Shown piece after piece: positions 1,135 to 47,815 of a DNA stretch of 64,000 nt (positions within the stretch are counted from its first letter, which is position 1; every line of letters begins with the position of its first letter). Source of the DNA: Patescibacteria group bacterium (lineage in GTDB: Bacteria > Patescibacteriota > Minisyncoccia > UBA6257 > GWB1-50-10); NCBI GenBank assembly GCA_040757555.1, contig JBFLWN010000001.1, positions 53,128 through 117,127 of the forward strand, given 5' to 3'. The position numbers were made by a program, and so were the translations under genes. Below the pieces are notes generated by a model that saw only the letters and a list, made by a program, of their open reading frames with translations, did no database searches and was not told the origin of the DNA.

Positions 1135-1539
1135 TTATTCAACCTTAGATGTTTTTGCATCTCTTCGAGACTTCTTTTTTTGATAACGAAGACGTTTACG
1201 ATGGAGACGCTCCTCTATCGAGCCTTGATGGGGCCCCGTGGGAATACGAGGTTTCTCTTCGTGAAGCGCCTCTTCAATCAACTCATTTAATTTTTCAATT
1301 GCCCGATCTCTATTTTGTTCTTGCGCCCGCTCTTCATCACTTTCTGTCTCAAGTTCGTCTCGTTCGTTTATCTTATTCGCAAGTTTAATTCTTATTTTCT
1401 TTTTTTTCGCTTCCGAGATATCCAGATCATTGATATTCACCCATGCCTGTATGCGCGTTGATCGTTTATTTACGTTTTGTCCACCGGGACCACTTGATCG
1501 TGATGTTTTTATTTTTATATTTTCATTATTTACAAACAT
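1135..1539 (-). CDS. arfB: Peptidyl-tRNA hydrolase ArfB/ICT1 family (alternative ribosome rescue factor)
   Basis: GGQ motif 'SGPGGQNVNK', basic C-terminal tail; start placed at internal Met (MFVNNENIK). Confidence 0.75.
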   Translation of the reverse strand: MFVNNENIKIKTSRSSGPGGQNVNKRSTRIQAWVNINDLDISEAKKKKIRIKLANKINERDELETESDEERAQEQNRDRAIEKLNELIEEALHEEKPRIPTGPHQGSIEERLHRKRLRYQKKKSRRDAKTSKVE

Positions 1540-1597
1540 ATTGCTAAAAACTTCCAATATAAAAATTATACGGTATAATGGGTACGTGGACAATTTA

Positions 1598-2248
1598 ATG
1601 GAGATTGTGGGTTCGTGGATTTTACAAAATCCAACGTGGACCGATGCAATTTTAGGCATAAGCATGATTATTCAAGGAGAACTTACCATTCTCCTTGCTA
1701 TGTATTTGGCAATTAGTGGCAAAATAACGTGGCTTCAGTTTGTTGTACCAACCCTCGGCGCAATTATGTTCGCTGAGGTATTTATTTATCTTATCGGAAA
1801 GAATATCCGCAATACCCGATTCGGATGGAGACTTTCAAAAAAAATGAAAGGAAATAAAAGAGTGCAAACGTACACCTACTATCTGAAACAAAATATGACA
1901 AAACTACTAATTATTACAAAATTTATCCCCGCAACGAATCTTATGATTATGAGCCTTATTGGATGGACAAGAACGAAATTTAAAGATTTTTTTCCTTCAT
2001 ATATAAAAAGTCTTTTAGTGTGGTTTTTGAGCATGACTGTTGTTGCCTATTTCCTTATGTCGGGACTCCACTACTTAAGCTCCACAAAGGTATTTAAACA
2101 GGCTGAAATCGGAATTGTAGTGATTTTTGTGCTTATTTTTGCGGGGGAACATATTTTGAGCAAACTCTTCAAAAAATACACTTCGATTGAGGAAAAAGCG
2201 GAACTTATCGGAGAATCAGTCGAAGAAAAATTCGAAGAAAAAGGATAA
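1598..2248 (+). CDS. Integral membrane protein, DedA/SNARE-associated-like (putative)
   Basis: Multi-TM hydrophobic profile; -10 TATAAT at 1574-1579; start at MEIVGS. Confidence 0.4.
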   Translation: MEIVGSWILQNPTWTDAILGISMIIQGELTILLAMYLAISGKITWLQFVVPTLGAIMFAEVFIYLIGKNIRNTRFGWRLSKKMKGNKRVQTYTYYLKQNMTKLLIITKFIPATNLMIMSLIGWTRTKFKDFFPSYIKSLLVWFLSMTVVAYFLMSGLHYLSSTKVFKQAEIGIVVIFVLIFAGEHILSKLFKKYTSIEEKAELIGESVEEKFEEKG

Positions 2249-3713: not shown

Positions 3714-3941
3714 AAAATCCGCCGAATGGCGGATTCTTTTGTGCCGCGGGGGTGAATCGCCCGCGACTCAAATACTCGCCGTCGCTCGTATTTGGTCTGG
3801 GCACCACCTCGCGGTGTAATGTGCTCATTACACAACGCTCCGGTGTTCGATTTACCACACACACACAAAGCAGTTTGTGTGCTCCCCGACAAAACAAAAT
3901 CCGCCGAATGGCGGATTCTTTTGTGCCGCGGGGGTGAATCG
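3714..3941 (-). repeat. tRNA-Phe-linked mini-element B: 136-bp structured core bounded by perfect 46-bp direct repeats (3714-3759, 3896-3941) = last 18 nt of tRNA-Phe + trailer hairpin
   Basis: Direct sequence comparison; core homologous to elements at 40.7 kb and 47.7 kb. Confidence 0.8.
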
Positions 3942-3995
3942 AACACCCGACGCCAGCCTCTTCAGGGCTGCGCTCTACCACTGAGCTACCGCGGC
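3924..3995 (-). tRNA. tRNA-Phe (GAA)
   Basis: Cloverleaf; anticodon loop CTGAAGA. Confidence 0.9.
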
Positions 3996-5854: not shown

Positions 5855-5955
5855 TGATACCTCCTTTTTATTATTGATAATTCTGAAAAAACTATACTCC
5901 AAACAAAAGGGGAAAACAATAAACACCGCAAGAATGCGGTGTTTATTGTTTTTTG

Positions 5956-6027
5956 TACCCCGAGCAGGAATCGAACCCACATTAAGGCCTTAGAAGAGCC
6001 CTGTTCTATCCATTGAACTATCGGGGC
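5956..6027 (-). tRNA. tRNA-Arg (TCT)
   Basis: Cloverleaf; anticodon loop CTTCTAA; terminator hairpin directly 3'. Confidence 0.8.
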
Positions 6028-6097: not shown

Positions 6098-7261
6098 TTA
6101 CCTCAGCTCTGCGCCAAATTGAGATGCGGTTTCTTTATAAAGCGTATCCTGAATTTTATCAACTTCTTCGGACACTAATGTGCGATCGCTCGCGCGATAC
6201 ACCGCACGAAATGTGTAGCTTACACGATTCGGTCCAAATTTTTTTTCATCTTCATATTTATCGAGTAATTGAACCTCCTCAACAAGATCGCCTCCAATAT
6301 CCCGAATCACGTCATAATATTGATTCACAAAAAAATCTTTTCCGACAACGAATGAAATATCTCTTGTGATCGGAGGAAACTTACTCACCTCTTTATATTT
6401 ATTTCCGAGCACCAACTGTTTTATCACGCGTGGATCCTCCGAACGCAACAAACGAATATCAGGAAGTTCCATACTCACAATTGCGAGTCGTTCCGCACCA
6501 AATCCAAACGCCCATCCCGAATATTGTTTCGGATCAACCCCGAGTTTCTCGAGCACCACGGGACGCACCATCCCCCCTCCCAACACCTCAATCCACTGCC
6601 CATTTCTTTCGATTTCCATTTCGACACTCGGATCCGTATAGGGAAATGTATCCTCATTAAAACGGAATTTAATATCTTCTCCAAAGATTGCTTTTGCGAT
6701 TTTTCCAAGAATATTTTTTAATTCATCAAACGGCACTATTTTGTCGCTTGTGGGATGTAAATACCATCCGTCGATTTGATGAAAGACATTCAAATGAAAT
6801 CGATCGATTTCGTCCTTGCGATACACCTTCCCGTACGACAGCGAACCGAGTGGTTGATTGTTTTTTATCCTCTCCTGTATCTCTTTTGATTTCACGTAGT
6901 AATACCACATGATAGTCGTGTGAGTGCGGAGAATATATTCATCATTCACAAAATAGGTGTCCGATGCGCTCCGAGCCGGATGTTCGGGAGGAAAATTAAA
7001 CAAATCGAAACTTTGATCCGCGCGGACAATTTCGGGAACCTGAATATGATCAAAATTTTTAAATTCGGGGATACCAAAAATACGCGTTGCAACTTCACAT
7101 ATCGGGTGTCCTTGGGCGCGTGTTTGATCGGAAAGTGCAAGAAAGCGTGTTAAACGCATACTATCCGCATCATCCTTTTTTTTGAGCTCCTCACGTAACC
7201 GCGCTTCCTCGGGCGAAGTTATATTTAAACGAAGTTTTGGTAAATTTTCGTAGAATTCCAT
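6098..7261 (-). CDS. pheS: Phenylalanine--tRNA ligase, single-chain form: PheS catalytic domain fused to C-terminal FDX-ACB anticodon-binding domain
   Basis: 'FPPEHPARSASDTYF' and 'GWAFGFGAERLA' class-II PheS motifs; ~90-aa C-terminal ferredoxin-fold extension; no pheT adjacent. Confidence 0.8.
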   Translation of the reverse strand: MEFYENLPKLRLNITSPEEARLREELKKKDDADSMRLTRFLALSDQTRAQGHPICEVATRIFGIPEFKNFDHIQVPEIVRADQSFDLFNFPPEHPARSASDTYFVNDEYILRTHTTIMWYYYVKSKEIQERIKNNQPLGSLSYGKVYRKDEIDRFHLNVFHQIDGWYLHPTSDKIVPFDELKNILGKIAKAIFGEDIKFRFNEDTFPYTDPSVEMEIERNGQWIEVLGGGMVRPVVLEKLGVDPKQYSGWAFGFGAERLAIVSMELPDIRLLRSEDPRVIKQLVLGNKYKEVSKFPPITRDISFVVGKDFFVNQYYDVIRDIGGDLVEEVQLLDKYEDEKKFGPNRVSYTFRAVYRASDRTLVSEEVDKIQDTLYKETASQFGAELR

Positions 7262-7475: not shown

Positions 7476-7547
7476 CGCGGGGAAGAGTAACGGTTGCTCG
7501 CAAGGCTCATAACCTTGAGGTAGTAGGTTCAATTCCTGCCCCCGCAA
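7476..7547 (+). tRNA. Initiator tRNA-fMet (CAT)
   Basis: C1:A72 mismatch, CGCGGGG...CCCCGCAA ends closely match E. coli tRNAfMet. Confidence 0.85.
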
Positions 7548-7591
7548 CAAAAAATAATATAAAGGTCATTTTGTAAAAAACAATATATAAC

Positions 7592-8041
7592 ATGTCTTAC
7601 GAAAAAATAGAGGACACCGATGTATTAGAAGAAAATGATGTGGTGGAAAAAGAAAAAACCGAAGGAGAAAATGATGGATTATACGAAATTTCGGTTGAAA
7701 AACACAATAAAGATCAATTTGGAGCATTTGCACAAAGAAAGGAATTAAGGGTTTCGGGAAATCAACTTGATGCACATTATTCTGACCAAACTCCGGATGA
7801 AGTAAACGAGGCAATGGATAACCTCATTGAAGAGGGTGAAGAGGACGGAGGCGAGACATCAGACGAGTTAATTTCCAAAAATAAAAACTTCATTGAGGGA
7901 AAAACTGGAAAAAAAATTGCCGGAATAAAAGCAAAATATTTTATCACAAACGAGCAGTGGAAAAATATGGATGAAAACGAAAGGAAGGAACTCCTTAAGA
8001 AGAAACAAGAAGAAATTAATAATTTGTACATAAAAAAATAA
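7592..8041 (+). CDS. Hypothetical acidic (Glu/Asp-rich) protein
   Basis: ORF with RBS-like context; low complexity. Confidence 0.4.
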   Translation: MSYEKIEDTDVLEENDVVEKEKTEGENDGLYEISVEKHNKDQFGAFAQRKELRVSGNQLDAHYSDQTPDEVNEAMDNLIEEGEEDGGETSDELISKNKNFIEGKTGKKIAGIKAKYFITNEQWKNMDENERKELLKKKQEEINNLYIKK

Positions 8042-24282: not shown

Positions 24283-27200
24283 CTATCTTTCTTGGAACGA
24301 CTGCCCATATCTTCCCACTTCCTTACAATCGATATTTGAACTACATTGTTGCTCGGTATTTTCCATCTTCACTTTTGCATTTGGATCATTTGAAGAATTA
24401 TACGAGTTCACCGAAAAATCACAGTAACTATTTCTCGTACACACCCCTCTCTTCGCTACCGATCCACCACTATTGTCTCGTAATGTTTTTGTCGCCCCGG
24501 AATTACTCCACTCTGTTATTCTATTCGATCCATCTTCATAAATGACGCGCACACGGTAGAGATACACAGTGTCCACCTCAAGATTTTTATCAACGTAGAC
24601 CGGCGCAGTAGTGGTTGCAACTGATTTGAAATATATATCAAGAGGATTTCCCGCCGATTGCCCCTCAGCTACTTTTGCGTTTTCTTGCGCGAGTTTTATC
24701 GCCGCCTCTTCCGCTTGTTTCATCATTTCGGAAAATAGCGAAGTAATGTTTCCCCATCCTTCTTCAAATCCTTTTACAATACGTGAAAGACTTGCCGAAA
24801 GTGTCGACACTCTTTCTTGACTATGATCGACAAATAATCCTTTCCACATATACTTCGCGTTACTCCACAAATCAGCAAAGAACGATCCTTTGTATACAAT
24901 CGGTGGAGTGCTTGTACTTTTTAGTTCAAATGTCGCACTCACATTTGCATCTCGAGAGGGCATAGTGAACGAACACGATGGATTTGTTCCACTGCAATCT
25001 CCCCACCATGATTTAAATACCGTACTTGTTGATCCGGGGGTTGCTACCAATGAAACTGATGAACCCTCTTCAATTGAAGTGCTACACTGGCTCTTTCCGT
25101 TTCCACAATTAATACCCGAACCCGAAATATTTCCATTTCCGGTAACAAATGCAGAAAGGGTAAACACGATTTGTCTGAAGTTTCCTGTCACACTTGAATT
25201 CCCTGGACCAAATGTGCATGAAGTTCGTTTATTACAGTTTGGATCATAAGGACTACAAATACATGAAACACCAGTCCATCCGGTAAACGTATAATCTGAA
25301 TCTGCGGTTGCCGAAACAGTTACCGTATTTGGATTTGTGGTCCATGGGAAAAATGCAGTACAACTTCCCGGACAACTCGCCAAATCACCGGAACCCGTTA
25401 CACTCCCTCCTCCACTTGTCGCAAGATCAACTTGGTAGTAAGTATCAGTATTTGTGTATGTCGAGTCTGAATATACTCGTGCAATTCCATTTCCCCCGTT
25501 TTCTGCGGGAATCACATAATATCCTCTTATTTCATATGAATAGTTTGTTCCCGGACTCAATGCGGAATTATTTTTATTATTTGAAGACGGGGTATCAACA
25601 TGGGTAAGCGTTGCGGTTGCATTACTGTTGTAACTCTGCTCATGAATAAGTATTCCCTCTCTCCAAATCTGATATCCACTCTCACGTTTTGAATTATCAT
25701 TCCATCGAAGCGTGATACTATGCACTCCGGTCGATTTACTATATGCAGCAGTAGAGGTAGCGCGTGTTGGTGTCATTGGGGGTGTGGTGGTCGCAACCGC
25801 AGGAGTTCCCCCTCCATTTAAGTTCGGTGGCACCATTGCAAGTTCTGGGGACGGCGCATATTTTCCACACACTGGATTTGGTCTGTCCACTTTTCCCGCA
25901 ATAAGATCTGGCGGTTCTTTTGTATATGACTCATCGAGTGTTGAATCTTTATATGTTGAACATGCCTTCACGCGATAATAATACGTGGTCGCGTCTTGGA
26001 GCCCTCCATCAAAATATGAATATGTCTTTAACCCGTCCGACGGAGAAGTACTTCCTGTGGACTCGAGTTTTATCATTGCCTTATCATTCCCCGCGTCATT
26101 CGGTGGAAGATTATTTAAAAATCTATTTGAGGTACTTGTGCTCCGTTCAATCCAATTGAAGTAGGGAGTTGAAGTGGTTCTGTTTTTCCATTCGAGATTA
26201 ATACTTGAATCAGTGGCGCCCAACACTTTTATATCGGTGCTTGATGCGGGGGTAAGTTTTATCCGTTGTACGCTAAATTTATACGGCTTTGTGGTGGTGG
26301 TATTGTCTTTCCAGTTTACATAAATCGTCGAGGCATCAACCCCAAACGCTTTTAATTTACTGGGAGTGTCGTTTAGTTGTGGTGCGGTAATAAATCCACA
26401 ATTACTCACCTGTGTCGATGTTGAATAACCGTCTGAAGTATATTTTACGGTAAGTACATAAGTATATTTTGTGCTTGTCGAAAGTCCCCTATCCAAATAA
26501 CTCCCCGGAATGTCCGACATGGAAGAAATTGTTTTATTCGCAGCAGGAAGTGCTGTGCCATTTCGGGTAATTGAAATAGTGTGTGGCGCATATCCGGTAT
26601 ATCCCCCTTCGTGTCCGGTATCAACGGGAGCTTTTGACCAATTATAGGTGAGTACCATTGTTGATGTGCCATTTGCATCGCAATTTATCACATAGGGAAA
26701 TTTCACCGTTGTGGTCGCTCTCCCCGTTTCGTTTGATGCGGTCGAACTTGCTTTCACGGTAAATGGCCCACCGGAGTTCGGTGCTTGATATGTTGTCTTC
26801 GCTTTTGCCACAGTATTTTGTGGTGACACACTCCCCACTGTACCAATACTTCCTCCCAAAATATTATTCACAAACCATGTTGCACTTTTTTCAACGGAAA
26901 AATCTTGTTTTTCTTTTGGAAATAGGGTCACGGGACCCGCAGGAGTTAATCCAAACGATGAAACAGGAGCGGTGAATCCAAACATAATCCACCCGCCGAT
27001 TGAGGGTCCTCCCCACGCAGTTCCATTTACCTCAACTTGATTATTATTTATTGATCCATCCCAAACACAATTCTCTCCGGTAATAAGCACTACCGTCCCA
27101 TCTGAAGTATCAATAGTATATTTTCGTTCTCCCGTTCTTCCAAGACATAATCCATATTTCACATTATTATCAGTATTTCTTAAACTCACCCATCCATCCC

Positions 27201-27690
27201 ATGAACCCACCGAAGAACCAACGGGACATCCCCCCGCAACACAAATAAATCTCGCCCATCCACTTATCTTTCCTGTGTCATAATCAAGTGTTGCCTTACA
27301 ATTTTGAGGTTTTGTATCTCTTTCTGGACAATCCCCGAGATCACTATTATTAAACGAAAGCCATCCATATGAATCTTTCCCCGTTTTTGGATCTTTTATT
27401 GAGGCCCATCCCTGTCCTTCAAGTGTTGTTTTATTTTTTACACTGACTTTAAATGACGCGCCACTTGGTTGCCCTGTTGGATTTTCGGAATTCAACACTA
27501 TCCATCCAAGCCCTTTATTGTCCTGTGCGCTCCATCCGATTCCATATAAATCAAAATTAGCGTTATCCGCATAAATTTTCACCGCCCCAATCACCCCAAT
27601 AAAAAATATCGCGGCAATCAAAACAGAAAAGAGAGACTTCTTTTTTATCCCGTTAGAAAATAACAAAAAATGTTTTTTATGTAGCATCAT
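24283..27690 (-). CDS. Large secreted/surface protein with Thr/Ser-rich FN3/Ig-like repeats
   Basis: N-terminal TM/signal; repeated W-x-D/N-N-T-T modules; 1135 aa. Confidence 0.55.
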   Translation of the reverse strand: MMLHKKHFLLFSNGIKKKSLFSVLIAAIFFIGVIGAVKIYADNANFDLYGIGWSAQDNKGLGWIVLNSENPTGQPSGASFKVSVKNKTTLEGQGWASIKDPKTGKDSYGWLSFNNSDLGDCPERDTKPQNCKATLDYDTGKISGWARFICVAGGCPVGSSVGSWDGWVSLRNTDNNVKYGLCLGRTGERKYTIDTSDGTVVLITGENCVWDGSINNNQVEVNGTAWGGPSIGGWIMFGFTAPVSSFGLTPAGPVTLFPKEKQDFSVEKSATWFVNNILGGSIGTVGSVSPQNTVAKAKTTYQAPNSGGPFTVKASSTASNETGRATTTVKFPYVINCDANGTSTMVLTYNWSKAPVDTGHEGGYTGYAPHTISITRNGTALPAANKTISSMSDIPGSYLDRGLSTSTKYTYVLTVKYTSDGYSTSTQVSNCGFITAPQLNDTPSKLKAFGVDASTIYVNWKDNTTTTKPYKFSVQRIKLTPASSTDIKVLGATDSSINLEWKNRTTSTPYFNWIERSTSTSNRFLNNLPPNDAGNDKAMIKLESTGSTSPSDGLKTYSYFDGGLQDATTYYYRVKACSTYKDSTLDESYTKEPPDLIAGKVDRPNPVCGKYAPSPELAMVPPNLNGGGTPAVATTTPPMTPTRATSTAAYSKSTGVHSITLRWNDNSKRESGYQIWREGILIHEQSYNSNATATLTHVDTPSSNNKNNSALSPGTNYSYEIRGYYVIPAENGGNGIARVYSDSTYTNTDTYYQVDLATSGGGSVTGSGDLASCPGSCTAFFPWTTNPNTVTVSATADSDYTFTGWTGVSCICSPYDPNCNKRTSCTFGPGNSSVTGNFRQIVFTLSAFVTGNGNISGSGINCGNGKSQCSTSIEEGSSVSLVATPGSTSTVFKSWWGDCSGTNPSCSFTMPSRDANVSATFELKSTSTPPIVYKGSFFADLWSNAKYMWKGLFVDHSQERVSTLSASLSRIVKGFEEGWGNITSLFSEMMKQAEEAAIKLAQENAKVAEGQSAGNPLDIYFKSVATTTAPVYVDKNLEVDTVYLYRVRVIYEDGSNRITEWSNSGATKTLRDNSGGSVAKRGVCTRNSYCDFSVNSYNSSNDPNAKVKMENTEQQCSSNIDCKEVGRYGQSFQER

Positions 27691-39658: not shown

Positions 39659-39732
39659 TGGTGCGGGCAAGGAGAATCGAACTCCTGTCTCAACCTTGGC
39701 AAGGTCGTGTTCTACCACTAAACCATGCCCGC
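39659..39732 (-). tRNA. tRNA-Gly (GCC), CCA encoded
   Basis: Cloverleaf; loop TTGCCAA. Confidence 0.85.
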
Positions 39733-39769
39733 TCAATCGGTATTCGTTGAAATTTTCAATTCGTAATTC

Positions 39770-39940
39770 CTAATTTTTAACAGCGGGAGAGGGAATGGTC
39801 GGTCCTTTTGTGTAGGGATCCCCGACAGGACCCTTGAATTGCACAGGCGCCTCAGCACGATCATTGATAAAAACAAACATAATCACCCCAACCAAAAGAA
39901 GGATAAAAACCAACAAAATAAGCTTGTTTCTTTTCTCCAT
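39770..39940 (-). CDS. Small single-TM protein between two tRNA genes
   Basis: ORF; start set at MEKRNK. Confidence 0.3.
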   Translation of the reverse strand: MEKRNKLILLVFILLLVGVIMFVFINDRAEAPVQFKGPVGDPYTKGPTIPSPAVKN

Positions 39941-39995
39941 TCTCTTAATTCTATTGTAATAAAAAATATGGAATAAATCCATATTTTTTATTCTG

Positions 39996-40067
39996 TGCCC
40001 TCGAGAGGAGTCGAACCTCTGTTACGAGATCCGCAATCTCGCGTCCTATCCATTGAACGACGAGGGC
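39996..40067 (-). tRNA. tRNA-Arg (anticodon reads GCG)
   Basis: Cloverleaf with perfect CGAGA/TCTCG anticodon stem; loop TTGCGGA. Confidence 0.7.
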
Positions 40068-40136
40068 GTCGTCTCTCTTTCTTCAAAATGATAATACTAC
40101 ATTATTAAATACTTACAAGAAAAAACTAATAAACTG

Positions 40137-40637
40137 TTAAAACCCAATATAATCAAAAATAATATCAATAATTGATTCATCGTGCTCCTCTTCGGGAAGT
40201 TTTTCCAAAAGAATTTCTCGTGCTCTCTTCGCGAGTTCTGAGTCAATTGGGATATGAATGGTAGGATTAATCATTGATTTCTTTCTCACTATAATTTCAT
40301 CCAGATATCCTTCGCGTGAACGCATTGCGAAACTTTCAATTTGATCATATTCAAGTGCAACCACTTTTCCGATATATACTCCCTTATCTGAAATAGTGAA
40401 TTCAAATATCTGAGGGCGACGACGTGCAAACATAATAATCAATGCCCCCGCAATGAGTGAAAACGCTCCAAAGAAAAAATTTCCCTTCAAAAAAGAAAAA
40501 ATAGAAATTCCACCCGCTATCACTACAACCCACACAAACCATTTTGTGGATTTCTCAGAATGACTATATTCTGCAGCTTTCCATGTTATACTTGTCCCCG
40601 TCTCTCCTTTTTCTTCAATTTCTTTTTTCTTTTCCAT
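40137..40637 (-). CDS. Hypothetical membrane protein (2 TM, PH-like C-terminus)
   Basis: ORF with TM segments. Confidence 0.4.
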   Translation of the reverse strand: MEKKKEIEEKGETGTSITWKAAEYSHSEKSTKWFVWVVVIAGGISIFSFLKGNFFFGAFSLIAGALIIMFARRRPQIFEFTISDKGVYIGKVVALEYDQIESFAMRSREGYLDEIIVRKKSMINPTIHIPIDSELAKRAREILLEKLPEEEHDESIIDIIFDYIGF

Positions 40638-40720
40638 TGTTTAAGTATAAATGTTTTTAACAACAATCCCAAATTTATCCGCTTATGACGGAGGGAATCC
40701 TCTTCCCCTATTCACAACTA

Positions 40721-40865
40721 GGGGGAATCGCCCGCGACTCAAAATGTTTCCGTCGAAACATTTTGGCCCGGGCACCGCCTCGCGTACTCGTCTACTGACT
40801 CACATACACTCCGGCGTTCGATTCACCACGCGAAACAAGCAGTTGTTTCGCTTTGGGACAAAATA
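40721..40865 (-). repeat. tRNA-Glu-linked mini-element A (core homologous to B and C; only 9-nt tRNA 3'-end copy remains)
   Basis: Aligned by eye to elements B and C; sits 3' of tRNA-Glu after its terminator hairpin. Confidence 0.7.
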
Positions 40866-40893
40866 AAAAACCTGGTAGGTTTTTTATTCTTTG

Positions 40894-40965
40894 TAGTCCC
40901 AAGGGGAATCGAACCCCTATTTCCGCCGTGAAAGGGCGATGTCCTAACCGTTAGACGATGGGACC
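40894..40965 (-). tRNA. tRNA-Glu (TTC)
   Basis: Cloverleaf; loop CTTTCAC. Confidence 0.85.
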
Positions 40966-41036
40966 AGACACAAACAAAGTGTATCCTGACTTATTTATAA
41001 AATCAATTTTTTGACGCATCTGCAAAAATTGTAAGT

Positions 41037-41122
41037 GCGGAAGGTGGAGGATTCGAACCTCCGATGCCTTGCGGCATACCGCATTTCAAGTGCGGCGCAT
41101 TCGACCACTCTGCCAACCTTCC
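41037..41122 (-). tRNA. tRNA-Ser (TGA)
   Basis: Long variable arm; loop CTTGAAA. Confidence 0.85.
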
Positions 41123-41162
41123 AGTGTCAAAAATAGTGTACCCTAGGATATCTATTTGGTAA

Positions 41163-41268
41163 ATCCCGTTAGAAGTTCATTTGGTGCACTAAGCCCACTT
41201 GTTTACTAAAAGATCCATCATTATTCATTCTTAATTTGGAATATTAGGCGTGCTACTTTTAACGGGAT
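41163..41268. repeat. Degenerate MITE-like element with ATCCCGTTA / TAACGGGAT termini
   Basis: Shares terminal inverted-repeat core with 13488 and 60031 copies; interior diverged. Confidence 0.4.
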
Positions 41269-41416
41269 AAATCCCCTGGAAAATAGCCAAAAATAGGGCC
41301 TTGACAGGGGTATTGACTTATTCTGTGTAACATGCTAGAATATATTCAGAATTAGGTAATAAAAAATTATTTACTAATTGATAACAATAAATAAAAAAAA
41401 TCCTCAGGAGGATCCA

Positions 41417-42142
41417 ATGACTACCGATCAAAAAACCCGTTTAGGCATCTTAATAGTGCTAGTATTAATTCTTGCTGTTTCATTATTAAACTGGTTTAAA
41501 GCACCAACAGCTGACGACATGACTAATTCAGTTAATGTCGGAGCTGTAAAAATTGATAGTTCCCTGAATGCTTTGGGAAAAAAAGTTGATGTAACAAACG
41601 AAACACTTAAAACCACAAATAGTACGCTTGGTGATATCAGTGGGTACACAAGTGACATCGCGGAAAATGCAGGAAACATCGCAAACAATACTTATTACAG
41701 CTCTCTTGAATCGAGACGTGCAGAAAAAGCCCGTGAAGATTCTGTTGTCAAAACAAAAAAATTAGAAAAAGCGCAGAAAGCAGTAGAAGATGCGCAGAAA
41801 GAACTGGAAGCCGTAAAAAATCCAAACAAACCAGTGGTTGTTGCACCATCATCAAATAATCCAAATGGAGATCTATTAAGTTCCATTGGGACAATGATTG
41901 ATGGTAAATTGAAACCGATATCTGATCGCCTTGGAAATCTTGAAACTGGGCAAAAAACAATGGAAACCCGGATGACTAGTTTGGAAACCCGGATGACAAC
42001 AATCGAAACGGATGTCAATAAAATGACATCTCTTTCAGATATTAATGCGCGCATTTCTCTTGGGGAGGAAGGATATCTCAAAATGAAAAAGAAACAAATG
42101 CGGGAACAGAAGGACTGCGACGACTTGTCGGGAAATAAATAA
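41417..42142 (+). CDS. Hypothetical membrane-anchored coiled-coil protein
   Basis: RBS AGGAGGA; -35 TTGACA / -10 TAGAAT upstream; N-terminal TM; repeated 'METRMTSLETRMTT' heptads. Confidence 0.5.
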   Translation: MTTDQKTRLGILIVLVLILAVSLLNWFKAPTADDMTNSVNVGAVKIDSSLNALGKKVDVTNETLKTTNSTLGDISGYTSDIAENAGNIANNTYYSSLESRRAEKAREDSVVKTKKLEKAQKAVEDAQKELEAVKNPNKPVVVAPSSNNPNGDLLSSIGTMIDGKLKPISDRLGNLETGQKTMETRMTSLETRMTTIETDVNKMTSLSDINARISLGEEGYLKMKKKQMREQKDCDDLSGNK

Positions 42143-42197
42143 CGAATTTTTATAATAATTAAGAGCGAAGGAAAAACCTTCGCTCTTAAACTTTTTG

Positions 42198-42270
42198 TGG
42201 ACCGTGCGGGATTTGAACCCGCTACCTTTCGCATGCCATGCGAACGCTCTACCAATTGAGCTAACGGCCC
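42198..42270 (-). tRNA. tRNA-Ala (GGC)
   Basis: G3:U70 identity pair; loop ATGGCAT. Confidence 0.8.
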
Positions 42271-42947
42271 ATTGTAATTACTTTTATACTTCCTAATAGA
42301 TCATTTAACACTTCTGCGGAGAAATAATCAATTCGGCACACTCCTTTATAGTCAGGTTTTTTTGATATAATTCCTCTTGTTCTCGGATCAATGCGCGCTA
42401 AATAAAATTGTTTGCGTGGAATTTTTGTTACCCCAACCCAAAAATTTTCCAGAGTATTTATATCTTGCCCAACCCTACATTGCACCGTACATCGAAACTT
42501 AGTCTCATCAATAACATAATTTTTCCTCAATAGTTCCAAAAATAATGAAATTATCTTTGGATCTGAATTTCCAAATACTATCGAACCACGATTTGGATTT
42601 TTTGATCCTTCCCCCAGGTAGAGTGTTGTAAGAACAATTTTTGCGATGTTTTTATTGTCCAACAGATGAAAGAGATTTTTATTTTTCTCGAAGAAAAAAA
42701 CATTTTTTTCATTTTTTATTCTTTTTTTCTTTTCTTGTGCTGCAATTCTCGCTTTTTTTAAGGAATTTTCCTTTGTTTTTTTAAGTATTCCCGCAATTAT
42801 GGGATTTTTTTCAAGTCCATGAAACCAAAACGAAAATGTAGATTTTGGGATATGTATTTTTAGTAGGGACTCTATTTCGATATATGTCTTCCCCTGTTTC
42901 CGTAATTCAATCGCTTTTTCTTTCACAATCCTTTGATATGTGCGCAT
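42261..42947 (-). CDS. Hypothetical HTH / LAGLIDADG-like (homing-endonuclease-like) protein
   Basis: N-terminal HTH-like segment; 'TLYLGEGSKN' weak LAGLIDADG-like motif; stop overlaps tRNA-Ala 5' end. Confidence 0.35.
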   Translation of the reverse strand: MRTYQRIVKEKAIELRKQGKTYIEIESLLKIHIPKSTFSFWFHGLEKNPIIAGILKKTKENSLKKARIAAQEKKKRIKNEKNVFFFEKNKNLFHLLDNKNIAKIVLTTLYLGEGSKNPNRGSIVFGNSDPKIISLFLELLRKNYVIDETKFRCTVQCRVGQDINTLENFWVGVTKIPRKQFYLARIDPRTRGIISKKPDYKGVCRIDYFSAEVLNDLLGSIKVITMGR

Positions 42948-43003
42948 ATGTGTATTGTACCATAGAATACTTCAACGTACACACTCTAAAAAAAAAAATC
43001 AAA

Positions 43004-43303
43004 CTAACAACTCTTTGATATCTCTATTATTTTTTCAAAATTATCTTCTTCTCTCGTTTTATTTTTTCTTTTAAATCCACATCGTTCACATTTCTGGGTG
43101 AGAATCCATTCATCTCCTTTTTTCTCAACGCTTATTGGCTCCATCATTCCTTTACACGTTTCCAATCGGTCTCCTGGATTTTTATCAACATGTTTACTCC
43201 ACAAACAACGCGGACAATGATTGGTATATCCATCCCCCGACACATTCATTCCGCATTTCTCACATACAAAATTTTCTTCGTTTCTCTGAAATTTCTTTTC
43301 CAT
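43004..43303 (-). CDS. RNHCP-domain zinc-ribbon protein
   Basis: 'CEKCG...YTNHCPRCLWSKH...CERCG' motif. Confidence 0.6.
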   Translation of the reverse strand: MEKKFQRNEENFVCEKCGMNVSGDGYTNHCPRCLWSKHVDKNPGDRLETCKGMMEPISVEKKGDEWILTQKCERCGFKRKNKTREEDNFEKIIEISKSC

Positions 43304-43308
43304 TCTGT

Positions 43309-43381
43309 GCGCGATAGAGGACTCGAACCTCTGGCCTTCACAATGTCAATGTGACGCTCTAACCAGCTGAGCTAATCGCGC
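43309..43381 (-). tRNA. tRNA-Val (GAC)
   Basis: Cloverleaf; loop TTGACAT. Confidence 0.85.
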
Positions 43382-43698
43382 GTATTTTTTTCCTTGCGCT
43401 CTTCTTTCATTTTTTTCAAAGCATCGGAAATTTTTTCATTGGGATATTTTATACTCGCTTCCACTACATCAGAAAAATTTTCTTCTACCCCATTTACTGG
43501 AATTTTGTCGCCAACTTTCGTAAATCCCATTCCCACCTTTCCCCGTTCTGGATCGTTTCGTCTCACCATGAGTGTGTCTGTCGTTTCCTCTACGGTAAAA
43601 CTATAAGGAATCTCACTCTTTACTCGCTCAAGCATCTTTGTGAGTCTTTTATCTTCCGCATCGGAGATTTTATTGTACTCAAATTTAGCTCGTTCCAC
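43372..43698 (-). CDS. Hypothetical protein
   Basis: ORF only. Confidence 0.35.
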   Translation of the reverse strand: MERAKFEYNKISDAEDKRLTKMLERVKSEIPYSFTVEETTDTLMVRRNDPERGKVGMGFTKVGDKIPVNGVEENFSDVVEASIKYPNEKISDALKKMKEERKEKNTRD

Positions 43699-43785
43699 GG
43701 ACTAAGAATAGCAGATAAAAAAGGATTTCCGCAAGCGAAAAGGTTGCGATAGTCATTTATTTTTGCAATGATAAACAAGGTATTT

Positions 43786-43857
43786 GCCCCCGTAGTTCAA
43801 TGGATAGAACAGGTCCGTCCTAAGGACAAAATGGGAGTTCGATTCTCTCTGGGGGCA
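43786..43857 (+). tRNA. tRNA-Arg (CCT)
   Basis: Cloverleaf; anticodon CCT. Confidence 0.75.
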
Positions 43858-43945
43858 CATACGAAAAATATTTTCGTAGGGAGGGGTGGCTGACCACCGC
43901 CCTTGGCGGGGCCCCGCTTTTTAAGCGGCGGGTGGTCGGAATAAA

Positions 43946-44191
43946 ATGTATTACACATATATTTTAAAAAGTGAAAAGACTGGGAAACATTATGTCGGTT
44001 CCTGTGAAAATATCGAATCGAGACTGAAACGACATACCTCGGGAAGAAATAAATCTACTAAAGCAGGAATTCCATGGAAACTTATTTATTTCGAGGCATT
44101 CTTAACGAAACAGGATTCATATAGACGCGAATTTCAAATAAAAAGTTTTAAGGGTGGTGAAGCATTTAAAAAGTTGATAATATCTAACTAA
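43946..44191 (+). CDS. GIY-YIG family nuclease (small, stand-alone)
   Basis: 'YTYILKSEKTGKHYVGSCENIESRLKRH' GIY-YIG core. Confidence 0.75.
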   Translation: MYYTYILKSEKTGKHYVGSCENIESRLKRHTSGRNKSTKAGIPWKLIYFEAFLTKQDSYRREFQIKSFKGGEAFKKLIISN

Positions 44192-44196
44192 TATAT

Positions 44197-44283
44197 GGAG
44201 GGGTGGCTGAGTGGTCGAAGGCACACGACTCGAAATCGTGCAGGGATGAAAGTCCCTCGAGAGTTCAAATCTCTCCCCCTCCG
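44197..44283 (+). tRNA. tRNA-Ser (CGA)
   Basis: Long variable arm; loop CTCGAAA; terminator hairpin after. Confidence 0.85.
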
Positions 44284-44450
44284 CAAAACAACAACGCTTT
44301 TGGCGTTGTATTGTTTTATAGAGTGGATAAGAGATTTGAAGGGTATTTGAAAAAGGCAAACTGCTTTGCGTTTTTCAAAACCAAGACCTTGACACCAAAC
44401 CCCGTTCTGGTGTTTAGTGTATGTAGAACTATTTATATAAGAGGTGGCAC

Positions 44451-45179
44451 GTGGAAAAAAATGAAAAATATTTTGTATGGAGTTTTATATTCGAATCCGA
44501 TCTCATTGAACAAATTCCTAACAACCGACAACAACTTCGCGATGATATCATTGCCGAGAAACAAGATGGACACGTTGGCGCTATTCTCTTCGCTCGCTCT
44601 AAGGCAGACAAACAAGAGATGATTGATGAGGATTTTATAAAAACCATCCAGAAACTGATTTGTGCCGAACAACACCTGAAGGGCGCAAAGAAAATGAAAG
44701 ATGAAACAATTGGAAAATATCGTGAAGGAAATGTATCCGTGGTTTCAAAATATCCTGTATTTACAACCGGAGGAATTACATGGGTTAAAAAAATTTTGAA
44801 AAAAGGACCAGATCCAAGGCTTGTCCCCAAATTGATGGAAGAATGGGTAGAAAGTGTTCTGGAGTGGGAGAAAAATTTCAAATCATTTTCACCGGAAGAA
44901 AACGTGAAAAGAATTGCGGATTTCCATTTTGATTTTGAAGATATTCATCCATTTGCTGATGGCAACGGAAGAACCGGGAGAATACTTACCTACTACATGC
45001 TCCGCTACGCAAAACTCAATCAATTTATCTTTTGGGAATGCACAAAATCATACGATTATTATCCGGCATTCAAAGATAAAAAATTAATGCAAGAATATTT
45101 TCGAATTCACATATTTGAATCAAGAAAAATAGCTGGAAGAGTTGAATCGCTCACTGAAGATGAAATTGTCATATTTTAA
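44451..45179 (+). CDS. Fic/Doc family protein (AMPylase-type)
   Basis: 'HPFADGNGRTGR' Fic motif; GTG start, true start uncertain. Confidence 0.75.
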   Translation: MEKNEKYFVWSFIFESDLIEQIPNNRQQLRDDIIAEKQDGHVGAILFARSKADKQEMIDEDFIKTIQKLICAEQHLKGAKKMKDETIGKYREGNVSVVSKYPVFTTGGITWVKKILKKGPDPRLVPKLMEEWVESVLEWEKNFKSFSPEENVKRIADFHFDFEDIHPFADGNGRTGRILTYYMLRYAKLNQFIFWECTKSYDYYPAFKDKKLMQEYFRIHIFESRKIAGRVESLTEDEIVIF

Positions 45180-45210
45180 TACAGAAAATCCGCTTAAAAG
45201 CGGATTTTTA

Positions 45211-45395
45211 TTTGTGCCCGGGGTCGGACTCAAACAAAATTTCATAAACGAAATTTTTTGAAACCTTGCGGTTCCAATACCTCCACCACGGGGAAACTCC
45301 TGTTTCCCCGACCCCTTTTCCGTTCAGGGCCGGCTAAAATAAAAAACAATTGCATTAAATACAATTGTTTTTCTGTTTGTGCCCGGGGTCGGACT
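45211..45395 (-). repeat. tRNA-Leu-linked mini-element E: 143-bp core bounded by 21-bp direct repeats (45211-45231, 45375-45395) = tRNA-Leu 3' end + CAAA
   Basis: Direct comparison; core homologous to element D. Confidence 0.8.
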
Positions 45396-45462
45396 CGAAC
45401 CGACACGTCCTTGCGGACAACAGATCTTAAGTCTGTCGTGGCTGCCATTACACCACCCGGGC
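45380..45462 (-). tRNA. tRNA-Leu (TAA)
   Basis: Long variable arm; loop CTTAAGA. Confidence 0.85.
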
Positions 45463-45548
45463 GTTTTTTAATTCTTTTATATTCTGTTTCAATTTTGAAT
45501 AAAAAACAAGCGCCTTCATTCAACGAAAGCGCTTCTCATAGACAAGCG

Positions 45549-45621
45549 AGGTGTGGGCTGGATTCGAACCAGCGCATGACGGTTTTGCAGACCGCCGCGT
45601 TCACCACTTCACCACCACACC
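45549..45621 (-). tRNA. tRNA-Cys (GCA), copy 1
   Basis: Cloverleaf; loop CTGCAAA; discriminator U. Confidence 0.75.
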
Positions 45622-45643
45622 AAATATGTAAAAGAGCTTTTGG

Positions 45644-45715
45644 AGGCCTGAGTGGGAATCGAACCCACGTATAAGAGTTTTGCAGACTCTTGCCTTACCA
45701 CTTGGCTATCAGGCC
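45644..45715 (-). tRNA. tRNA-Cys (GCA), copy 2 (divergent body)
   Basis: Cloverleaf; loop CTGCAAA. Confidence 0.75.
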
Positions 45716-46021
45716 TTATTCTTCATTCTCGCGCTTATGCGTATCAATTTCAAATTTCAAATGGGGCACCGCGCGAATTCTCATCTTCTTCAATAACTGG
45801 TGTTCCAATTGTTTCTTTTTCGAATCAATTGCAAAAAACGCCTCTAATTCTTTTTCATAAGGAATTATAGAAAGCATTACTTTCGCTTGCAAGAGATCTT
45901 CGGAAACCTCAACCGATGTGATAGTCACGAGTGCGTTATCAACTTCGCAGTCTTCAAGAATCATTTGCGAAAGTTCCTGCTCAATGAGACTCCCCATTTT
46001 AAGGTTACGGTATGGGCGCAT
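45716..46021 (-). CDS. rbfA: Ribosome-binding factor A
   Basis: ~100 aa, conserved RbfA profile, downstream of infB. Confidence 0.75.
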   Translation of the reverse strand: MRPYRNLKMGSLIEQELSQMILEDCEVDNALVTITSVEVSEDLLQAKVMLSIIPYEKELEAFFAIDSKKKQLEHQLLKKMRIRAVPHLKFEIDTHKRENEE

Positions 46022-46027
46022 ATAAAT

Positions 46028-47476
46028 TTAAATAAAAATAAGTGTATCCCCGATGCGAATATCAATATCACTTTCCGCTAACAGTCCCGCTTCAACTCCC
46101 GTCTCTGCTGATGAGACATCTTTTCTTCCTGACTGAAGATTTAAAATTTTTCCACTTCCAATTAATTTCCCTCCTCTCCATAAATCAAAAGTGCCCTGAT
46201 TTTTCACTGGTCCGAGAATTACTTTTCCTCCTACAATTCGTTCCTTCCCCTTTCCTCCAAATACTCCCAATATTTCAATACTCGGCATTTCCTTCGGATT
46301 CCTTCTTTTTATGTATTCAATCAACTCTTTCTCAAGTTCATAAATGATATCAGACTGAATCATCATCACTTTTTCATTTCGCGCCATATTGAGCGCTGCC
46401 TTATCTACCCTCACTTTAAATCCAAGAATAATTCCATGTGTACTCTGCGCAAATTTTATATCGGTTTCATAAATATCTCCGACACTTGCTGATGCGATAA
46501 TAATCGGCCGATCGCTCGGAATGCGTTCCGCAATTCCCCTTACCGCCTCCAAGGATCCCGCTTCGTCTGCTTTCACCACCAACGAAATAGTTGCTTCTTC
46601 TTTTATATTTTTTCCAAGTCCGGTTTGCACCGATGTATTCCCTACATGAAGTTTTTTTATTTCGTCTCCGCACACAAACTGCTCTCCAACTTCAGGAAGT
46701 GTTTCAAACCCAAGAATAAGTGCAGGGGCACTTGGCACAAGTGATTTTGCTGATTTCCCGAGAAAATCATTTAATATTTTTATCTTTCCCTTTGCACTCT
46801 TTGTGGCGATGACTTCCCCTTGAGATAGTGTTCCGTTTTTCACAATCACTCCCACAATTCCTCCGCGACGCGGATCAAGCTTACTTGTGATCACAACTCC
46901 CGTTGGACTTGCGGACGGATCATATGAGAGATCCTGCATCTCCGATGCGAGGATAACTAAATCCAAAAGATCGTTTACTCCTTCTCCGGTTTTCGCTGAA
47001 ATCGGATGCCACGACACATCTCCTCCAAATCCCTCGAGATACAGTCCAATATTTGCGAGATCGGATTTCGTCTTCTCAATATTCGCGTTTGGTTTATCAA
47101 TTTTATTGATTGCAACAATGCACGTGATATTTTCTTTTTTTATATATTCAAGCGCATTCTGCGTTTGTGGTTTCACCCCATCGTCGGCAGCCACCACGAG
47201 AATTGCGAGATCGGCGATACGCGCACTGTGTTCTCGCATCTTCGAAAATGCCTCATGTCCCGGGGTATCGATAAATGTAATTTTGCTTCCTTTGTGAGTA
47301 ATCTCATACGCCCCAATAGACTGAGTGATTCCTCCTGCCTCCTTTTCTGCCACGGTGGTTTTGCGGATATAATCAAGAAGCGTGGTTTTTCCATGATCCA
47401 CATGTCCCATAACTGCGATGACTGGAGGACGTTTTTCCATGTTTACAACCGTAACAGAGAAAACACATAAATACAA
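46028..47476 (-). CDS. infB: Translation initiation factor IF-2 (short form: G domain to C-terminus only)
   Basis: 'VIAVMGHVDHGKTTLLD' G1, 'DTPGHEAF' G3, 'NKIDK' G4; likely start at MEKRPP (47440). Confidence 0.85.
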   Translation of the reverse strand: MYLCVFSVTVVNMEKRPPVIAVMGHVDHGKTTLLDYIRKTTVAEKEAGGITQSIGAYEITHKGSKITFIDTPGHEAFSKMREHSARIADLAILVVAADDGVKPQTQNALEYIKKENITCIVAINKIDKPNANIEKTKSDLANIGLYLEGFGGDVSWHPISAKTGEGVNDLLDLVILASEMQDLSYDPSASPTGVVITSKLDPRRGGIVGVIVKNGTLSQGEVIATKSAKGKIKILNDFLGKSAKSLVPSAPALILGFETLPEVGEQFVCGDEIKKLHVGNTSVQTGLGKNIKEEATISLVVKADEAGSLEAVRGIAERIPSDRPIIIASASVGDIYETDIKFAQSTHGIILGFKVRVDKAALNMARNEKVMMIQSDIIYELEKELIEYIKRRNPKEMPSIEILGVFGGKGKERIVGGKVILGPVKNQGTFDLWRGGKLIGSGKILNLQSGRKDVSSAETGVEAGLLAESDIDIRIGDTLIFI

Positions 47477-47541
47477 GAAAAACCATAATAAATCTACTTG
47501 AATGCAGATCTGTTTTGCATTATTCTCAATTGGTAAGTCTT

Positions 47542-47628
47542 GGAGGCGTGGCTGAGTGGTTTAAAGCGGCATCCTGCTAAGATGTCGACCGGGAAACCGG
47601 TCCGAAGGTTCGAATCCTTCCGCCTCCG
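47542..47628 (+). tRNA. tRNA-Ser (GCT)
   Basis: Long variable arm; loop CTGCTAA. Confidence 0.85.
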
Positions 47629-47815
47629 CAAGAAAACAGCGCATTTATGTGCTGTTTTTGTATGCGGATGCGGGAGCGAGACAACTGCTTGTCTCGCGTC
47701 CGGATTCGAACGCCGGAGCATGCGCAACTCAGTAGAATTGCACGCGAGGCGGTGGCTAGACAAATTCTCTCTGACGAGAGAGAATTTAGTCAAAGCCGAA
47801 TCCTTCCGCCTCCGC
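47611..47815 (+). repeat. tRNA-Ser(GCT)-linked mini-element C: 168-bp core (includes tRNA terminator hairpin) bounded by 19-bp direct repeats (47611-47629, 47797-47815) = tRNA T-loop/acceptor 3' strand
   Basis: Direct comparison; core homologous to A and B. Confidence 0.8.

Follow-up and report, generated by a model that had tools for sequence, protein, structure and literature searches.

Here, we report on a 64,000-nt stretch of a Patescibacteria genome (contig JBFLWN010000001.1, in the following called the window), in which the open reading frame (ORF) at positions 6098-7261 probably encodes a single-polypeptide phenylalanyl-tRNA synthetase (PheRS) of the mitochondrial type; as a housekeeping enzyme, it would most likely be the organism's sole PheRS. 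In ordinary bacteria, it is the beta subunit PheT that ends in the FDX-ACB anticodon-binding domain. The window protein carries this domain behind a PheS-like catalytic core on one and the same chain. Three forms of PheRS are distinguished; all known prokaryotes are reported to share the heterotetramer, and no monomeric synthetase other than the mitochondrial enzyme to have a class II core (PMC3275996). In the full-text literature searched, subscription journals excepted, we found no single-chain PheRS described for bacteria in general or for the Candidate Phyla Radiation (CPR). The sequences themselves are deposited by the thousands and the kind of enzyme is already known. The gene is ordinary within its own lineage.

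Domain architecture

The gene is complete and its product of 387 amino acids (aa) comprises the following parts:

6098-7261, minus strand: complete single-chain PheRS gene, 387 aa, with ATG start and the TAA stop inside the coordinates (ORF list)
7127-7261, minus strand: N-terminal region, aa 1-45, without PF02912 match; two short helices in the AlphaFold2 model (aa 17-28 and 32-42)
6416-7126, minus strand: class IIc catalytic core, aa 46-282 (Pfam PF01409, tRNA-synt_2d, E-value 6.5e-59)
inside the core: motif 2 VYRKDEIDRFHLNVFHQIDG (aa 146-165), the phenylalanine-pocket loop FPYT (aa 206-209) and motif 3 GFGAERLA (aa 253-260)
6101-6385, minus strand: FDX-ACB (B8-like) anticodon-binding domain, aa 293-387 (PF03147, E-value 2.9e-23, profile positions 1-94 of 94)

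An initial annotation of the window had described the protein as a PheS core fused to a C-terminal FDX-ACB domain. Both Pfam matches (PF01409 and PF03147) confirm this fusion, and the two segments quoted there, ITRDISFVV and RAVYRASDRTL, are located within the FDX-ACB match. Canonical PheS starts with an N-terminal coiled coil of about 100 aa; the 387-aa protein has its two short helices there instead. Furthermore, Pfam reports no match of the protein to Phe_tRNA-synt_N (PF02912), B3_4 (PF03483), B5 (PF03484) or PF17759. E. coli PheT aligns solely to the last ~100 aa, namely via its residues 696-794. Within this domain, the window protein keeps S293, P296, R300-D301, V330, L332, D334, Y336, T361-L362 and E366, which are common to the PheT and the mitochondrial domains.

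Compared to the canonical (alpha-beta)2 enzyme of PheS and PheT (TIGR00468/TIGR00472), the core is homologous (36% identity between the window protein and E. coli PheS) and shows the same specificity residues. In contrast, the canonical enzyme consists of two chains with a coiled coil and the PheT domains B1-B7, while the window enzyme is a single chain with none of these and no B3/B4 editing site. The closest known counterpart is mitochondrial PheRS (human FARS2, yeast MSF1; TIGR00469), which combines the same class IIc core with a C-terminal FDX-ACB domain and has neither a coiled coil nor an editing domain. AARS Online lists the mitochondrial-like family as 'PheRS-M'. Unlike its mitochondrial counterparts, the window gene is bacterial and chromosomal, resides in housekeeping synteny and belongs to a clade of its own (99% bootstrap). 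In addition, mitochondrial matches fall into two stretches owing to an insertion, which is absent from the window protein.

Predicted structure and active site

The AlphaFold2 model of the protein, computed with 30 homologs, reaches a pLDDT of 93.5 and a pTM of 0.89. Its top Foldseek matches are the closed form of human mitochondrial PheRS (5mgh/3cmq) with a TM-score of 0.75 over ~390 columns (E-value 1e-33). Lower scores are obtained for the open, tRNA-bound form of the same enzyme (3tup, TM-score 0.56) and for PheS alpha chains (about 0.53), where only the core is covered. The sequence matches to solved structures follow the same order, i.e., human mitochondrial PheRS is found with an E-value of ~1e-54 and bacterial PheS chains with 1e-40 or weaker, restricted to the core. 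The closed state places the anticodon-binding domain where it would collide with the acceptor stem of the tRNA, such that tRNA binding involves a large domain movement (PMC3275996). By analogy with the human mitochondrial enzyme, the free window enzyme would rest closed with its anticodon-binding domain packed on the catalytic domain and would open for the tRNA.

Conservation of the active site was assessed within a core-profile alignment of 121 CPR family members, 12 canonical PheS, 95 mitochondrial or other fused proteins and five proteins of the PheS-related ligase family SrmL discussed below. Invariant or nearly so among the 121 CPR members are R148, R258, H156, F160-H161-Q162, S212, E214, G228, G230, A251, G253 and G255, as well as the loop F206-P207-(Y/F)208-T209. 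Here, R148 and R258 of the window protein are the arginines of motif 2 and motif 3. The window residues F206, Y208, T209, A251, G253, R148 and R258 correspond to F248, F250, T251, A294, G296, R195 and R301 of E. coli PheS. Mutation of A294 or T251 in the E. coli protein is known to relax the specificity for the para substituent. The equivalent position, Val261 in Thermus and Thr235 in human, is discussed in PMC3275996. Mitochondrial PheRS shares the phenylalanine-pocket residues of the window protein, including the threonine at this position.

The class IIc module is predicted to activate phenylalanine with ATP and to transfer it to tRNA-Phe, the GAA anticodon of which would be read by the C-terminal FDX-ACB domain. 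Since there is no B3/B4 editing domain, proofreading of Tyr-tRNA-Phe in cis should not be possible.

Family and phylogeny

A word-indexed search with the window protein yields >7000 matches. The best 120 of them are all 368-406 aa long, show the same two domains and are 62-95% identical to the query; a second search from a divergent family member listed another 118 matches. Among the matches listed, all named homologs are from Patescibacteria/CPR (Giovannonibacteria, Azambacteria, Doudnabacteria, Liptonbacteria, Yanofskybacteria, Parcubacteria, Paceibacterota and Minisyncoccia). The fused PheRS gene is no peculiarity of one genome; its family is large, spread among Patescibacteria and represented by thousands of database entries. 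When searching exhaustively within 1.84 billion representatives at 50% identity, the CPR family makes up about one cluster, followed by diverse fused proteins at 35-46% identity. Canonical PheS enters this ranking only from an E-value of ~1e-38.

We computed a neighbour-joining tree from 193 core columns of 133 sequences with 100 bootstraps. It is distance-based, has no archaeal outgroup and comprises only the nearest canonical PheS, a sampling that leaves statements on the deeper root tentative. Canonical PheS is separated from all fused forms, i.e., CPR, SrmL, mitochondrial as well as plasmid- and virus-borne ones, with 96% bootstrap. The CPR family forms a clade with 99% and joins a few other bacterial sequences, including one from an Oligoflexia metagenome-assembled genome (MAG), with 88%. 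The remaining group of mitochondrial and other fused forms reaches only 57-58%, such that the placement of the CPR clade relative to it is tentative. In terms of core identity, the window protein shows ~40% to the mitochondrial and other forms and 42% to canonical PheS.

The FDX-ACB domain provides a second view on this relation. The residues S303, F304, N313, R320, E328, R352 and R356 are common to the CPR family and the mitochondrial and other fused forms, while CPR PheT shows A, V, E, N, R, H and Q at the same seven positions; the signature of the window protein is thus of the fused or mitochondrial type rather than of the PheT type. Since core tree and FDX-ACB signature positions agree, the sequences indicate a single origin of the fusion, in contrast to a recent local joining of a CPR pheS to the end of pheT.

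Both analyses relate to the initial annotation, which had likened the protein to mitochondrial PheRS and had suggested a structural alignment with human FARS2 as well as a phylogeny of the catalytic domain. The likeness holds, as FARS2 is the best solved-structure match by sequence and by fold, with a full-length superposition on its closed form. The phylogeny agrees in part, i.e., the protein groups with the fused forms apart from canonical PheS but not inside the mitochondrial clade.

Canonical PheRS among CPR genomes

To judge whether the fused gene is the only PheRS of its carriers, we consulted Supplementary Data 1 of Meheust et al. 2019 (PMC6744442), which tabulates 921 widespread families for CPR (n=2321) and non-CPR-Bacteria (n=1198) besides columns for DPANN and non-DPANN-Archaea. 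The fused family is not among them. Canonical PheS alpha (PF02912+PF01409, K01889) is found in 1645 and PheT beta in 1642 of the 2321 CPR genomes (PMC6744442). The same genomes show clearly higher counts for AlaRS (2118), HisRS (2053), SerRS (2017), GatB (2002), S13 (2167) and L5 (2261). Among the 1198 non-CPR bacteria, PheS (1011) and PheT (1046) are on a par with AlaRS (1039), HisRS (1023) and SerRS (946). Given that PheS and PheT fall below the other synthetases, about 400-500 of the 2321 CPR genomes lack both canonical subunits, and there is no like deficit outside CPR. These genomes need some PheRS, and no candidate other than the fused family is seen. The study also reports a family, fam000662, with a 45% admixture of K01889/K01890 annotations, which its authors ascribe to alpha/beta homology; its table nonetheless contains clean separate alpha and beta families (PMC6744442). 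We note as a lead only, not as a finding, that fam000662 may be the fused single-chain PheRS.

Canonical genes were located via the PheT motif GQPxHxFD, written as a DNA pattern with codon bias. It listed 120 random genome loci, 117 of which are true PheT and seven of which are from CPR-labelled genomes. In six of these seven CPR loci, canonical pheS adjoins pheT; the seventh (L155) is a 2.5-kb contig without PheS match. For one Parcubacteria MAG with adjacent pheT and pheS, a full annotation table is available. It shows PF01409 once and PF03147 once, so the fused gene is absent there. Furthermore, the CPR set of 43 marker genes contains one Phe-tRNA synthetase marker. Taken together, the CPR-wide subunit deficit, the pheST-bearing MAG without fused gene and the single CPR marker favour displacement, and we consider it likely that the fused gene is the sole PheRS of the organism and has displaced the (alpha-beta)2 enzyme. 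The fused enzyme would have replaced an ancestral heterotetramer and would be inherited vertically as a housekeeping gene within a large Parcubacteria/Patescibacteria clade.

None of the genes that flank pheST at the seven CPR loci has an ortholog in the window, i.e., no synteny scar is seen. Scanning metagenomes with a PheT alignment gave ordinary PheTs as the best 80 matches, none from CPR. The nearest canonical PheS representatives were rejected as CPR seeds, their contexts being those of ordinary diderm bacteria. No long contig was common to the PheT and the fused-gene matches among the best 120 of thousands, a comparison without power.

The canonical subunits of CPR are themselves reduced in places. 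Among our loci, Woesebacteria and Minisyncoccia PheT (650-677 aa; L122 1528-3480 and L206 3983-6016) are without the N-terminal ~150 aa, which make up the B2 domain; for the 677-aa Minisyncoccia protein, this absence is in line with PMC5370408. One Paceibacterota PheS (L123 1163-1951) has only 262 aa and no coiled coil.

Locus and transcription

The surroundings of the PheRS gene contain the following features:

5955-6027, minus strand: tRNA-Arg(TCT), 70 nt downstream of the PheRS gene on the same strand (ARAGORN, Rfam)
5913-5952, minus strand: terminator-like hairpin (18-bp stem, then a T-rich tail) directly after tRNA-Arg (terminator scan, sequence)
7476-7548, plus strand: tRNA-Met, upstream of the PheRS gene and divergent (ARAGORN)
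7592-8041: 149-aa ORF on the upstream side, without Pfam match
3923-3995, minus strand: tRNA-Phe(GAA), the predicted PheRS substrate, 2.1 kb away (ARAGORN), with A as the penultimate base of the predicted gene

This is in line with the initial annotation, which had given a tRNA and a small ORF instead of pheT as flanking genes and had stated that no pheT is nearby. In six-frame tblastn searches of the window with E. coli PheT and another bacterial PheT, the only PheT-like sequence is the FDX-ACB segment of the 6098-7261 ORF. PheS queries match the same ORF only, i.e., no second pheS is found in the window. The infC-rpmI-rplT anchor of pheST is absent from the window, too. An ORF of PheT size (797 aa, 53147-55540) was considered as PheT and turned out to encode LeuRS.

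Besides LeuRS, the window encodes MetRS, LigA, GatC/GatA, type IV pilus proteins and 18 scattered tRNAs at ~39% GC. Judging from the named homologs of the fused protein, it belongs to a CPR genome of the Parcubacteria type. The local GC content around the PheRS gene equals the window average, and no phage genes are adjacent to it. The gene order of pilin genes, LigA, GatC, GatA, a few variable genes and then PheRS is kept in three genomes, namely the window, a 680-kb contig of GCA_041917695.1 and a JGI contig that encodes a 95%-identical PheRS. Between the window and GCA_041917695.1, PheRS shows 65% identity, followed by GatA (56%), LigA (55%), PilD (46%) and GatC (43%).

The hairpin at 5913-5952 is the probable end of a transcription unit. 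Since a terminator-like site is missing from the stretch that separates the PheRS stop codon from tRNA-Arg, with a strong hairpin behind the tRNA, the PheRS gene and tRNA-Arg(TCT) may share a single mRNA-tRNA transcript, judging from the sequence. A 5' leader or attenuator was considered and rejected, since its hairpins fold no better than shuffled sequences (z -1.3) and Rfam reports only tRNAs. Promoter-like sites near the PheRS gene occur at chance level only.

Some further observations concern the wider window. An RF-1-domain protein (ArfB-like, 138-176 aa) is encoded a few kb from PheRS both in the window (1135-1665) and in GCA_041917695.1 (L001 13757-14173), with 50% identity between the two. 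Of a serine-recombinase-type protein, a 290-aa ORF in the region 105-1040 retains the C-terminal parts alone, namely the Recombinase and zinc-ribbon domains, and may be a leftover of an integrated element; at its 3' end, 10 bp are shared with tRNA-His on the opposite strand (968-1040). The stretch 39659-47629 is unusually dense in tRNAs (12 genes in 8 kb) and includes a tandem pair of tRNA-Cys(GCA) at 45548-45621 and 45641-45715. Next to the type IV pilus cluster, an ORF of 1135 aa (24283-27690) has an InlB B-repeat-like domain as its sole family match and may encode a large surface protein.

Weighing of alternative explanations

Several observations speak against a single-chain housekeeping PheRS as the organism's only enzyme. 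The window protein misses every curated NCBIfam PheRS cutoff, i.e., it scores 223.1 vs 258.35 bits for TIGR00469 (pheS_mito) and 174.3 vs 237.45 bits for TIGR00468 (pheS), the latter with the coiled coil absent. Two positions of its active site deviate from the usual residues: position 164 is Asp in the CPR family and Glu in most PheRS, and position 208 is Tyr for Phe. With regard to exclusivity, three of the seven CPR PheT loci are labelled Parcubacteria, Paceibacterota or Minisyncoccia, and these coarse labels of pheST holders recur among the holders of the fused gene. We rejected lineage names as proof of exclusivity for this reason, Paceibacterota and Minisyncoccia being present in both lists. 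The 677-aa Minisyncoccia PheT has thousands of relatives, the named ones in Nealsonbacteria, Pacebacteria and Minisyncoccales. Finally, the fused architecture can be mobile and accessory outside CPR. Compact fused PheRS of ~350 aa are carried by a 340-kb phage-like ENA contig (L007), by a 635-kb record of an uncultured phage (LR745206.1 613857-614882) and by 43 IMG/VR loci (L230-L272), the latter including many contigs of 200-540 kb, several giant-virus MAGs and one of 1.47 Mb. Plasmid-borne homologs, named 'hypothetical protein', are found in Glutamicibacter nicotianae (NZ_CP142605.1 49764-50816) and Azotobacter chroococcum (NZ_CP066311.1 46129-47046), hosts which presumably own a normal chromosomal PheST. 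It is from these phage contigs, giant-virus MAGs and plasmids that the mobility of the architecture follows. The virus- and plasmid-borne forms show the same two domains with a shorter N-terminus, are not embedded in conserved chromosomal synteny and, where tested, mostly pass the pheS_mito cutoff. The viral ones belong to the mitochondrial/other branch of the tree, as the plasmid-borne ones may do. The same cutoff is passed by P0121, a 50%-identity representative of the CPR family (264.3 vs 258.35 bits). Concerning the active site, Asp164 is also present in 27 of the 95 mitochondrial and other forms and Tyr208 in 3/12 canonical PheS, i.e., on alignment both are conservative changes that occur in bona fide PheRS groups.

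These points bear to different extents on the alternatives to a sole housekeeping PheRS. The fused protein could be an accessory paralog, i.e., a second, perhaps specialised or stress-related PheRS next to canonical pheS/pheT elsewhere in the genome. Our view is restricted to 64 kb of that genome, some Parcubacteria-labelled genomes do hold canonical pheST, and fused homologs reside on the Glutamicibacter and Azotobacter plasmids as well as in the Oligoflexia MAG, all of them hosts that presumably have chromosomal pheST. We nevertheless regard this as unlikely. The ~400-500 CPR genomes without both canonical subunits require a PheRS, the fused gene is absent from the fully annotated Parcubacteria MAG with pheST, and the family counts leave at most ~110 extra PheS-family proteins across 2658 genomes. 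Furthermore, the fused gene is better conserved than LigA and GatA. Even less probable is that it is cargo of a mobile element or prophage, which we hardly expect at all despite the compact homologs on the 43 IMG/VR contigs, the phage record and the phage-like contig and despite the tRNA genes on both sides of the PheRS gene. The viral forms are on the other main branch of the tree, the housekeeping synteny is kept across genomes whose PheRS are 65-95% identical, and the locus shows unremarkable GC and no adjacent phage genes.

Two further explanations concern the function of the protein, and we consider both very improbable. The top NCBIfam match of the window protein is NF051887, 'PheS-related mystery ligase SrmL' (237.7 bits vs a cutoff of 300), which together with the missed PheRS cutoffs would fit a PheS-derived ligase for another substrate. 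SrmL indeed has the same fused architecture at similar length and is part of the same fused superfamily. True SrmL proteins, however, score 359-420 bits and form a separate, long-branched clade with 100% bootstrap, and their pocket is remodelled. SrmL shows His206, Gly212, Glu228 and Leu252 (window numbering). In the window protein and in all 121 of 121 relatives, these positions are F, S, G and F/Y, i.e., the CPR family keeps the PheRS residues; P0121 moreover passes the pheS_mito cutoff. The remodelled pocket, in which the first Phe of the FPF loop has become His, Ser212 Gly and Gly228 Glu, suggests that SrmL itself uses a substrate other than phenylalanine. The neighbours of one of the SrmL proteins we examined (P0221, P0172, P0253, P0232 and P0225), at locus L009, are peptidases, an IstB-like ATPase and ThrRS and give no functional clue. 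Likewise, the protein might be the catalytic subunit of a heteromer with a separately encoded, reduced beta-like partner, as CPR do trim their PheRS (PheT without B2, the 262-aa PheS without coiled coil). On the other hand, the chain already includes its anticodon-binding domain, CPR genomes lack canonical alpha and beta jointly (present in 1645 vs 1642), the model shows the closed domain packing of the mitochondrial type, and no conserved partner gene adjoins PheRS.

Implications

JGI labels the fused family 'phenylalanyl-tRNA synthetase alpha chain', while NCBI mostly uses 'hypothetical protein', so annotation and genome-completeness pipelines miss the PheRS of these organisms. With only 387 aa, this would be a minimal bacterial PheRS for structural and engineering work.

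A wider scenario is possible, if on the whole somewhat doubtful. The fusion might have arisen once in bacteria or their viruses, displaced the proofreading heterotetramer in about one fifth of the CPR genomes and given rise to mitochondrial PheRS, as opposed to a eukaryotic trimming of alphaproteobacterial PheST. A large radiation would then translate its Phe codons without cis editing of Tyr-tRNA-Phe. With fused forms known from bacteria, plasmids, huge phages and giant viruses, the origin of mitochondrial PheRS becomes open to testing. Of specialist interest are both this bearing on the mitochondrial enzyme and the lineage-wide swap of an editing heterotetramer for a minimal single chain. 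If true, a single-chain housekeeping PheRS in much of Parcubacteria would revise the picture of a heterotetramer in all prokaryotes, and ultra-small bacteria would translate without PheRS editing.

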